From contig OX597818.1 in NCBI GenBank assembly GCA_951406725.2, positions 127,162,001 through 127,226,000 on the forward strand: a stretch of 64,000 nucleotides of DNA. Direction: 5' to 3'. The notes under the pieces were generated by a model. It saw only the letters and a program-made list of their open reading frames with translations. It was not told the origin of the DNA and searched no databases. This DNA comes from Octopus vulgaris (lineage: Eukaryota). Position numbers and translations under genes: made by a program. Shown here piece after piece: positions 5,120 to 63,779 of the stretch. Each line of letters starts with the position of its first letter. The stretch's first letter is position 1.

Positions 5120-5320
5120 TTCTTCCAAGGAATCTAATGCGCTTGGCTTAGATTTTCCTTTGGAGCTGGCCAGATCGGAGCAATCTCAAGATTAATCAGC
5201 CGAAATTGCGAGGATGATCCGGTTCTTGACTGAAGATTGAAGGCTTCGAATGTCCCGTCCGTGTTTTTTGTATCGTCTTCTAAATGTTTCACGTTCTTGT
5301 CCCAGTTTGCATTTTTTTAC
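5120..5320 (+). mobile_element. (TA)n-embedded short element, family J1 copy A
   Basis: (TA)n on both sides; homologous to 7486-7677 and 22280-22516. Confidence 0.75.
5163..5246 (+). ncRNA. candidate non-circularly permuted hammerhead ribozyme (J1-A)
   Basis: GCAA-TC-TCAAGA ... CAGCC-GAAA-TTGC ... TCTTGA-CTGAAGA; stems I and III are flush with the core segments. Confidence 0.55.
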
Positions 5321-5699
5321 ATATATATATATATATATACACACAACGGGCTTCTTCTAAATTTCCGTTTACATGGGTAAGTTTGTCTCCGCAACCATTT
5401 GGTTAAGGGCCTTCTATCACGGTACCGTGCTGAGCACCTTGTGCGTGAATCTGTGAGACGGAAACTGTGGAAACTTAATGTATACATATATAGATATATG
5501 TGTATTTATGTGGGGCTTTTTGTGTGTATTTCTGCGTCTATTTGTTTTCGTCTCTCACCGCTAGGTGTCTACTGTTAGCTTCTTAACGACCTGTAAGAAG
5601 CTTTTCAAAGAAAAAGAAATCGACAGAAAATATACTGGCGTAAAATAAAGTACCGTCTGTACCGGAGAGCTTTTGGTTGGCTTAGCAATTCAAGACGGG

Positions 5700-6265: not shown

Positions 6266-6625
6266 ACGTTTTTACCTGTCTCCTGTCAAAGTTCGTTTCT
6301 CCAGCTTTCACCACTTCATTTCGTTATGGTTTAACTGTTTTTTCTTACTGTCCTGTTTTTCTTTAGACCTCCGCAAATTCCAAATTTTCTTTAATTTGCT
6401 TTGCGAGAACGACTGTTTTAACGAAGACGTGTCTTGTCCCCACTTTCGAAATGCGGAGAAGATAAACATGGGACAACTGATGAAGGGATTGTTCTTTATG
6501 TTACCTGTCTTGTTTCCCTATATGTTTCTTTCGTTGTTCGAAAAGAAAGTTCGTTTTTCTTGTTTTTGTTTTTCCTGTTCTCGTTTTTCATGTTGTTCAC
6601 TTTTTTGATGCCCTGTACCCATATA
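6266..6625 (+). mobile_element. microsatellite-embedded short element, family J2
   Basis: Pyrimidine-rich element between (CA)n and (TA)n-like tracts; 3' half homologous to the reverse complement of 23580-23727. Confidence 0.7.
6428..6488 (+). ncRNA. candidate non-circularly permuted hammerhead ribozyme (J2), intact core
   Basis: CGTG-TC-TTGTCCC-cac-TTTC-GAAA-TGCG ... GGGACAA-CTGATGA-A-GGGA: GUC triplet, 7-bp stem I, wobble-rich stems II and III. Confidence 0.65.
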
Positions 6626-6677
6626 TGTATGTGTATATACATATATATGTAGGTATGTACATATATGAATGTATATA

Positions 6678-7125: not shown

Positions 7126-7128
<3 letters not shown>

Positions 7129-7677
7129 CAAAAAAACAAGGACGGGTCATTCGGAGTTTTCTTTCCTCAGTCGAGTTCCAGATTATCTTTTGCAATTTCG
7201 GCAAGTTGTACTCGAAATTGCACCAATCTGGCCAGTCCCAAGGAAAAATTAAGCTAAGTGCACTGATCTTTCTTTCTTGCTTCGACTACAATCCGTGCAA
7301 CATCTATATTCCTCCCTGAATCTGTCAAACCTTATGTCCCTGCCGTAAGGCTTTACTTCCACACACGCTAGCTTAATTTAATTCGTCCTTAGTCGAAAGA
7401 CACCCGTAGTATTTGTCCTGTTATTTGTATTTTACACCATTTCTCCGTTTTTTTTTCGTCCTTATTTTCGTATACATTCGCTGCTTTCTTCCAAGGAATC
7501 TAGTGCTCTTAGCTTAGTTTTTCCTTGGGGCTAGCCAGATTGGAGCAATCTCGAGTATAACCAGCCGAAATTGCAAAGATAATCTGGAACTCGACTGAGG
7601 AAAGAATACTCCGAATGACCCGTCCTTCTTTCGTCTGTCTGGATGTTTTGAGTTCTTGTCCCATTTTTGTATTTTTT
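7126..7677 (+). mobile_element. (TA)n-embedded element with inverted arms, family J1 copy B
   Basis: 7137-7268 is a diverged reverse complement of 7497-7627; (TA)n flanks. Confidence 0.8.
7528..7601 (+). ncRNA. candidate non-circularly permuted hammerhead ribozyme (J1-B)
   Basis: GCAA-TC-TCGAGT ... CAGCC-GAAA-TTGC ... ACTCGA-CTGAGGA; a second, diverged copy lies on the minus strand in the left arm. Confidence 0.55.
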
Positions 7678-7731
7678 ATATATAAAAATGTAGCGGCGTA
7701 CGTTCACTTTGGTCTCCTACACATACATACA

Positions 7732-22279: not shown

Positions 22280-22512
22280 TGTTTTTAACCGTTACTGTCT
22301 TCAAAAAAGTTCTTTTCGTTTCATGTTCGTCTCTGTTGCGTTTCATTCTTTCCTTCTGTGGCTGGCCGATTCAGAGCGGATCTCAGAATTAAACAGCCGA
22401 AATCTGCGATGAGGAATCGGTTTCTGACTGAAGAACGAAGGCTTTGAATGACCCGTTTGTCTTTTATGTTCGTCCCTTCGTGTATTTCATGTTATTTATA
22501 CATGTAGAGGTT

Positions 22513-22516
<4 letters not shown>
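22280..22516 (+). mobile_element. (TA)n-embedded element, family J1 copy C
   Basis: Divergent J1 subfamily; (TA)n on both sides. Confidence 0.7.
22352..22444 (+). ncRNA. candidate non-circularly permuted hammerhead ribozyme (J1-C)
   Basis: GCGGA-TC-TCAGAA ... CAGCC-GAAA-TCTGC ... TTCTGA-CTGAAGA. Confidence 0.55.
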
Positions 22517-22568
<52 letters not shown>

Positions 22569-23003
22569 CAACAATTGAGGGTAAAATTAATTAATTAATC
22601 AATTTCACCAAGTATTCAGTATGCAAAGGGACCATTTAAGGCGAATTCAAATTATTACATTATATAAAAGGGCTTAGTAAAATAAATTACTTTGCCGCAT
22701 ACTGAACTCATTAGAAATAGCAGCTAAAAAAACTTTTTTAAAACTATTTCCAATACTTAAAGAAAATCTCTCTCATATAGTGTTTGCTCAACTCAACTCA
22801 CGAAAGTATGAGGGTAGAAACATTAAAAAATCAAATGCAAAGGTTATTTGAGAACGTACGTTCTCAAATAATCTCAGAATTAAACAGCCGAAATCTGCGA
22901 TGAGGAATCGGTTTCTGACTGAAGAACGAAGGCTTTGAATGACCCGTTTGTCTTTTATGTTCGTCCCTTCGTGTATTTCATGTTATTTATACATGTAGAG
23001 GTT

Positions 23004-23047
<44 letters not shown>

Positions 23048-23350
23048 CAACAATTGAGGGTAAAATTAATTAATTAATCAATTTCACCAAGTATTCAGTA
23101 TGCAAAGGGACCATTTAAGGCGAATTCAAATTATTACATTATATAAAAGGGCTTAGTAAAATAAATTACTTTGCCGCATACTGAACTCATTAGAAATAGC
23201 AGCTAAAAAAACTTTTTTAAAACTATTTCCAATACTTAAAGAAAATCTCTCTCATATAGTGTTTGCTCAACTCAACTCACGAAAGTATGAGGGTAGAAAC
23301 ATTAAAAAATCAAATGCAAAGGTTATTTGAGAACGTACGTTCTCAAATAA
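22380..23350. repeat. near-identical tandem duplication, about 480-490 bp unit
   Basis: 22380-22871 repeated at 22871-23350; the only difference seen is (TA)n length. Confidence 0.9.
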
Positions 23351-23523
23351 CCTTTGCATTTGATTTTTTAATGTTTCTACCCTCATACTTTCGTGAGTTG
23401 AGTTGAGCAAACACTATATGAGAGAGATTTTCTTTAAGTATTGGAAATAGTTTTAAAAAAGTTTTTTTAGCTGCTATTTCTAATGAGTTCAGTATGCGGC
23501 AAAGTAATTTATTTTACTAAGCC

Positions 23524-63312: not shown

Positions 63313-63779
63313 ATATATATATTCTGCGATGGTTTTCTGTAATCAGTGACGATTTTTACAATTCTTTAAATAATAATAATATTTTATAAGCTTAAAGCTT
63401 ATAAGCGATCACCGTGTAATGACTAAAGAAAATAGTTTAAATATTGGGGCATATAAGCCCTCAACAGAAAAAAGTAGGGTTTTCGTACGGATGAATCATA
63501 ACCTCGGACCCTACCATAAGGGTACTTGGAGTTCTTCATTTATTTAAACAATATTGTTAGCCTCGTGTGCCAGCAGAGAGCTTATGAGGTATTTTGCCCG
63601 GATTGATAATCCCTCGCTGTAAGTTCCGTTATACAAAATGGAACAAGAACACAAAACATCCGGCCAACTAGGTGATACAAAAAAGGGACAACAAAACATC
63701 ATATATATATTGGACTTATAGTTTCCGTCTACCAAATTCATTCACCAGTCATTGATCGTGCTGTAGAACTGTACTCGAA

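Follow-up and report, generated by a model that had tools for sequence, protein, structure and literature searches.

Can a hammerhead core be assembled from strands whose order no circular permutation provides, and from where does such a core take the 5' strand of stem II? The window analyzed here, a 64,000-nucleotide stretch of Octopus vulgaris contig OX597818.1, raises this question through several copies of one repeat family, J1. From three divergent copies (A, B, and C), the original prediction proposed a pseudoknotted hammerhead core of noncircular strand order carried by (TA)n-targeting retroelements, and the layout, the helices, and the (TA)n flanks of J1 all support this picture. We consider it highly probable that the 3' part of J1 represents a complete hammerhead core in which the cleavage strand (S), the GAAA strand (G), and the CUGANGA strand (C) follow one another in that order and stem II is built with an upstream strand. 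Such an RNA would cut itself after AUC, and the cut end would have become the 5' end of many templates copied into (TA)n.

Copies of J1 and the order of their strands

On reinspection of the sequence, copies A, B, and C lie where they had been placed (Table 1), and their stem I, stem III, and extra 7-bp helix are paired and covary among the three as had been described. The predicted scissile bonds were also correctly positioned, with G12 at 5202, 7567, and 22399. Copy B is the complete copy of the window. Position 5164 (G10.1) is an A in copy A and a G in other J1 copies, and copy A is ended at 5120 by (TA)n, so that most of its P4 5' strand is gone. In copy C (22344 to 22450, plus strand), the P5 hairpin is cleanly absent, a loss unique to this copy among the loci examined, and the dinucleotide that follows CUGAAGA is paired with the one that precedes GGCTG; this could reflect a single deletion or a small subfamily. 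Part of copy C and its flank form a 479-bp tandem duplication (22380 to 23400), which ends in a long perfect palindrome centered near 23340. An isolated J1 3' tail fragment without a ribozyme lies at 63631 to 63700 on the minus strand. J1 does not follow the circular order of the type I, II, and III Rfam models, in which CUGANGA precedes GAAA. Among the 150 Rfam matches listed for the window there was no hammerhead, only miRNA models on simple repeats, and of two matches over copy B at E values up to 10, neither was a hammerhead.

Table 1. Positions of J1 copies, their ribozyme parts, and a related repeat in the window
Feature	Position	Strand	Remark
Copy A	5120-5339	+	Between two (TA)n runs
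Copy A, stem II 5' strand	5164-5168	+	G10.1 replaced by A
Copy A, predicted cut	5185/5186	+	
Copy A, GAAA	5202-5205	+	
Copy A, CUGAAGA	5230-5236	+	
Copy A, P4 3' strand	5237-5252	+	
Second repeat family	6345-6670	+	Old degenerate copy sharing the ribozyme layout; GAAA near 6448
Copy D (fourth J1 copy)	7126-7264	-	Inverted arm, head to head with B; stem II damaged
J1 element arm with copy B	7263-7684	+	5'-truncated unit, 3' tail at TA run; from BLAST of longer J1 units
Copy B, P4 5' strand	7475-7490	+	In-register pairing with 7602-7617; also in single-sequence fold of B
Copy B, P5 hairpin	7491-7528	+	Ends directly before G10.1; present in fold of B
Copy B, stem II 5' strand	7529-7533	+	G10.1 = 7529; pairs with 7562-7566; upstream of cleavage strand
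Copy B, 5' strand of Ia (I-II interaction helix) and GA of kink-turn-like loop	7535-7544	+	
Copy B, block S	7545-7556	+	Stem III 5' strand, U16.1-C17, predicted cut 7550/7551, stem I 5' strand
Copy B, block G	7562-7574	+	Stem II 3' strand, GAAA (G12 = 7567), stem III 3' strand
Copy B, NNN-GA-U strand of kink-turn-like loop and Ia 3' strand	7575-7587	+	
Copy B, stem I 3' strand and CUGANGA	7589-7601	+	A9 = 7601; stem II does not follow
Copy B, P4 3' strand	7602-7617	+	Starts right after A9
Copy C	22344-22566	+	P5 hairpin deleted; P4 abuts stem II
Copy C, stem II 5' strand	22360-22364	+	
Copy C, predicted cut	22382/22383	+	
Copy C, GAAA	22399-22402	+	
Copy C, CUGAAGA	22428-22434	+	
Copy C2 (partial)	22869-23045	+	Starts 2 to 3 nt before the cut; within the local 479-bp tandem duplication

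In complete copies, the parts follow in the order P4-P5-II5'-Ia-GA-III5'-UH-cut-I5'-linker-II3'-GAAA-III3'-NNN-GA-N-Ia'-I3'-CUGANGA-P4'. The hammerhead core (C3-U4-G5-A6-N7-G8-A9, G12-A13-A14, A15.1-U16.1, and H17) is complete in B, C, and further families, an invariance that is partly circular because the core is partly built into the search pattern and most alignment rows were found via it; when copies were retrieved solely through their upstream DNA, core mutations did appear among them. The contact between stems I and II that belongs to the hammerhead class is present as helix Ia, which is tied to stem III by linkers of only 3 and 6 nt.

Helix support and the proposed break at A9/G10.1

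Covariation was examined in a larger alignment of 53 J1 copies, made up of 52 of 56 listed loci and copy C. One near-duplicate, one copy with a duplicated hairpin, and two truncated copies were dropped, and four of the remaining rows lack the P4 5' strand or P5. All six helices show compensatory changes. Across 45 named pairs, 84.6% of cells are paired, compared to 33 to 52% when the partner is slid, a comparison in which the structure has an advantage since it was drawn from the same sequences. Both sides have changed in 25 of these pairs (stem I, 4/6; stem II, 3/5; stem III, 3/5; Ia, 5/7; P4, 7/16; P5, 3/6), versus 17.1 ± 2.3 in shuffled alignments, and none of 500 shuffles reached 25. The proportion of paired cells was 76% for P4, 85% for P5, and 89% for stem II. 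RNAalifold, which cannot draw pseudoknots, recovered only the outer part of P4 and stem I (-1.5 kcal/mol). When copy B was folded alone, P4, P5, Ia, and stem III were obtained; the copy at another locus (L026) preferred a rival fold that keeps P4, P5, and stem II and loses stems I, III, and Ia. In copy B, 7519 to 7527 could pair with 7597 to 7605, joining the 3' arm of P5 to the end of the core and the start of P4 in an inactive fold, a B-type pairing seen within an Rfam alignment.

The pattern CCGAAA-N20..32-CTGANGA matched the 2.8-Gb host genome 16,691 times, versus 1,514 times for a reversed control, and another pattern, from which J1 is largely excluded, gave 5,160 matches versus 326. The core-split layout exists in about 15,000 genomic copies. 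A descriptor of the split core, which requires that stem II and Ia be supplied from upstream, was passed by 47 of 199 distinct matches (hereafter, intact copies), the other 152 being truncated, mutated, or chance matches; when the upstream 54 nt were shuffled, 462 of 9,400 sequences passed (4.9%). Among chance matches of a similar pattern in viral contigs, 0 of 80 had matching stems I and III. A pattern modeled on the Acropora tail led to a multicopy family in metagenome contigs, in which the descriptor is passed by 14 of the 45 copies that have sufficient flanking sequence. Other Penelope-like families in the octopus genome (loci L109, L122, and L129) have hammerheads of canonical order, and both wirings coexist there.

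Two candidate 5' strands had originally been left open for stem II, namely, the upstream GGCTG and a GGCT shortly after CUGANGA. The former stood, as it covaries with the strand before GAAA, and the latter proved to belong to P4. In four unrelated families of this genome, the upstream strand reads GGCUG, GAAGG, GACAC, and GAGCA, and each complements the family's own strand before GAAA; variants within J1 change both sides. A 5-bp stem II placed 0 to 2 nt after CUGANGA, as an intact block C would have it, occurs in 1 of the 47 intact copies, in 6 of the 199 matches, and in 1 of 45 copies of the metagenome family. One could still read J1 as an ordinary type-SGC ribozyme with 5 nt inserted between A9 and G10.1 and with the downstream GGCU as its stem II strand, and a 4-bp match 3 to 8 nt after CUGANGA is indeed found in 25 of 47 intact copies, A and C included. 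However, it is absent from the other 22, among them B-type J1 and other families, it pairs inside P4, and only the upstream strand tracks the changes before GAAA, so that we regard this reading as most improbable. Because the stem II strand is the upstream one, by both covariation and the descriptor, the chain would be opened between A9 and G10.1.

A fourth helix at this step had also been proposed, with its partner next to GGCTG. The helix is real, but the partner adjoins GGCTG only in copy C; in complete copies, it precedes a separate hairpin (P5) and lies about 40 to 55 nt upstream of GGCTG. P4 begins 0 to 2 nt after A9, and P5 ends 0 to 2 nt before G10.1. In a loose test for a four-way arrangement, 30 of 47 intact copies passed versus 24% of shuffles, giving moderate support to a model in which P4 and P5 flank the break in the core. 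A kink-turn consists of a C helix, a 3-nt bulge, tandem G-A/A-G pairs, and an NC helix. Of the 47 intact copies, 30 showed the GA/NNN-GA pattern in the loop that joins stem III to Ia when scored with a strict script based on this consensus, and 17 did not; the pattern is absent from the coral-type family. In the mechanism we propose, the backbone would be opened between A9 and G10.1, and P4, P5, stem II, and the core would together make up a four-way junction in which P4 would stack on P5. Through the kink-turn, Ia would be folded alongside stem III in the direction of stems I and II, which would then meet within one molecule, and the chemistry would be that of the usual hammerhead (G8 and G12).

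Starts of J1 insertions at the predicted cut

If J1 RNA is cut, insertions copied from the 3' product should begin just after the scissile bond. Of 116 copies identified solely through their 3' part, 35 have their first base in the 14 nt that follow the predicted bond, compared to 3 in the 14 nt that precede it (P = 7e-8); the corresponding numbers are 25 versus 2 for J1 and 10 versus 1 for the second family. Four J1 copies start exactly at +1, and none starts at -1 to -11. Genome-wide, a pattern for (TA)n-flanked starts from +13 to -17 gave 765 minus-strand matches, and a comparable pattern for +19 to +39 gave 59, a ratio that is rough because the anchors differ. By eye, 27 of 29 distinct loci of the first pattern, a set that overlaps the 116 copies, start at +1 to +13. 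The metagenome family shows the same direction (9 versus 2 of 49 copies), which is not significant alone (P = 0.065). TA microhomology does not account for the starts, given that the second family is not AT-rich at positions +1 to +14. The simplest reading of the cluster is that reverse transcriptase ran off an RNA whose 5' end was the cut, and self-cleavage of J1 RNA is likely. The majority of copies reach past the cut site, indicating that uncut RNA would also have been a template, in line with Poseidon, whose unprocessed RNA serves for insertion according to the available text of its description (PMC11167929).

Cleavage by a lone J1 molecule, the reading preferred here, has to be weighed against two others. 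The same pairings could form between two molecules or tandem units or together with an element protein, and J1 would then cut as a dimer or a ribonucleoprotein rather than as a monomer. J1 units do occur in tandem, small Penelope hammerheads are reported to cleave as dimers (Lunse 2017), the Poseidon hammerhead of Anolis is described as cutting only with protein (PMC11167929, available text), and the ties between Ia and stem III are as short as noted above. However, linkers this short are compatible with a kink-turn (pattern present in 30 of 47 copies), which would bend a single molecule; stems are not palindromic in most families; and monomeric SGC ribozymes in which both helices are directly joined appear in the available text of Eckert et al. 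2023 (PMC10085705). On balance, we think it unlikely that the activity is dimeric or protein bound. A slightly more remote reading, which we hold to be quite improbable, is that the fold is a noncatalytic relic kept for protein binding or recognition by the reverse transcriptase and that the cluster of truncations reflects stalling of the enzyme at structure. It would accommodate the damage in most individual copies (152 of 199 fail the strict descriptor) and the report, in the accessible text, that the Poseidon hammerhead is dispensable for insertion in vitro (PMC11167929). Yet the UH, GAAA, and CUGANGA segments are retained across families with wholly different stems, and the starts accumulate up to +1 and end at the scissile bond. 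By our inference, a reverse transcriptase that reaches +1 to +11 would have unwound stems I, III, and Ia beforehand, and a stall at these positions is thus unexpected.

The carrier element, Naiads, and known hammerheads

J1 units measure 0.7 to 1 kb and are pyrimidine-rich, noncoding, and flanked by (TA)n; they occur in tandem (L003/L004, L039, L046, and L047) and as inverted arms. On sequence grounds, J1 is a noncoding Penelope-like repeat. Upstream walks at the J1 loci examined met only noncoding tandem units, with no autonomous partner and no ORF joined to J1, including none of the Naiad type with N-terminal GIY-YIG and C-terminal reverse transcriptase (RT). Two candidate partners were rejected: GIY-YIG matches, which led to elements with a C-terminal endonuclease (Neptune-like) without a linked split-core motif, and an endonuclease fragment beside L040, part of a different element whose core is canonical. 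No match was obtained with an exact 20-nt probe designed on the 5' end of Naiad. An apparently young, intact Penelope-like family (L101 to L104) carries an upstream ORF and a 781-amino-acid ORF with RT and C-terminal GIY-YIG in many copies; at three of four loci, no hammerhead core lies within 2.5 kb downstream.

Naiads favor (TA)n and are described in the available text of Craig et al. 2021 (PMC8557442) as lacking canonical hammerheads; eight are marked there as carrying a half core, among them Naiad_Ovul ("HHR_half_core"), with no structure given in that text. We inspected by eye the last 420 to 600 nt of 53 of the 54 Naiad consensus sequences (PMC8557442 File S5). The split-core layout, with unrelated stems, is visible in 10 of the 53 tails, which range from a ctenophore to the octopus (Bfor, Chem-3, Amil, Aacu, Anas, Movir-2, Plae, EuTe, Obim, and Ovul), and most of the 10 also show P4 and P5. 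Six nematode tails have the canonical hammerhead order, and the remaining tails show no such core within the stretch displayed. The tails of Naiad-1_Movir and Naiad-4_Chem (same file) are without a hammerhead and resemble, by eye, the core of a twister ribozyme, which suggests that Naiads may swap ribozyme classes. Oyster, clam, hemichordate, and two Clytia Naiad tails, from distantly related species, have a different conserved motif of ~70 nt in this 3' location, and a further tail motif is common to mussel Naiads; these motifs are possibly unrecognized self-cleaving RNAs.

In a sister family that has the J1 type of ribozyme and matches the Naiad_Obim/Ovul tail, 5 of 30 loci contain broken RT-like frames on the 5' side of the ribozyme. 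These frames end before a 3' untranslated region and match, as DNA and by eye, the end of the Naiad_Obim/Ovul consensus ORF, and it is on this match that their Naiad identity would rest. Six such fragments, all broken and short, had no Pfam match, no tblastn match with a Neptune-like protein, and matches only to unnamed Atlas clusters; no peptide match was found in the PMC8557442 supplement, where the protein lines are incomplete. J1 and Naiads share (TA)n targets, tandem and inverted arms, and the 3' position of the motif, but J1 has no ORF. We infer that J1 may be mobilized in trans by a Naiad-type RT/endonuclease, with cutting used to trim read-through or tandem transcripts.

Taken in its widest form, our interpretation is that this wiring, in which the catalytic strand itself is interrupted at A9/G10.1 and a four-way junction restores it (octopus families adding a kink-turn), falls outside the six hammerhead permutations thought possible. 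It would be the missing ribozyme of Naiads in at least five animal groups (ctenophore, cnidarian, acanthocephalan, crustacean, and cephalopod), would cut in vivo, and would fix the 5' starting point of a large fraction of insertions, a first genomic sign of a hammerhead role in Penelope-like transposition. We judge this whole to be reasonably likely. If true, it would break the stated rule that the CUGANGA block of a hammerhead cannot be split, would be the first noncircular hammerhead found in quantity in a cellular genome, and would account for descriptor searches that yielded only half cores in Naiads. The role of hammerheads in Penelope-like elements would become testable through the thousands of insertions that start directly after the predicted cut, and the four-way junction exposed at the core would offer a new attachment place for engineered switches.

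A viroid hammerhead carries a one-nucleotide insertion at A9/G10.1. Hammerheads with extra helices may reportedly be described by Weinberg 2015 and Hammann 2012. In the literature searched, drawn mainly from open-access papers, we found no earlier description of a core-split hammerhead, partial precedent for extra helices being possible, and no paper on cleavage by a core opened at A9/G10.1 via helices. An SGC wiring opened inside the core is apparently undescribed. Additional helices are mentioned, in the available part of a 2026 paper, with reference to Weinberg 2015. Core-insertion variants resemble J1 in that small insertions are tolerated in the core at places with an outward-facing backbone, but those in the available text of Perreault et al. 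2011 (PMC3088659) comprise 1 to 2 nt at other positions, and none is a helix pair that carries both chain ends. Type I hammerheads of the canonical kind, in Penelope/Poseidon, Neptune, and Hydra elements and in animal non-LTR retrozymes, likewise belong to nonautonomous, tandem-forming Penelope-like derivatives; unlike J1, they place CUGANGA before GAAA and have no core pseudoknots, as far as the available text states (bioRxiv 10.64898/2026.07.22.740005).

The closest known relative is type SGC. The noncircular order originally emphasized in J1 does hold, with the cleavage, GAAA, and CUGANGA strands in S-G-C order, but it is not new, having been published as type SGC. Eckert et al. 2023 (PMC10085705) validated ribozymes of this type (HRIMA-1 and variants) and counted six permutations on the assumption of an unbroken block C, in which CUGANGA stays with both adjacent strands; the examples in the available text come only from metatranscriptomes, none from the genome of a known organism. 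Compared with what that text shows, J1 and type SGC share the S, G, C order, a full core, a short linker between stems I and II, and a helix that joins the other sides of these stems with a short link to stem III. They differ in that J1 would have moved the II5' strand and the Ia arm to the front and closed the gap at A9/G10.1 with P4 and P5, and in that the layout is present in an animal genome in the abundance given above rather than in metatranscriptomes only.
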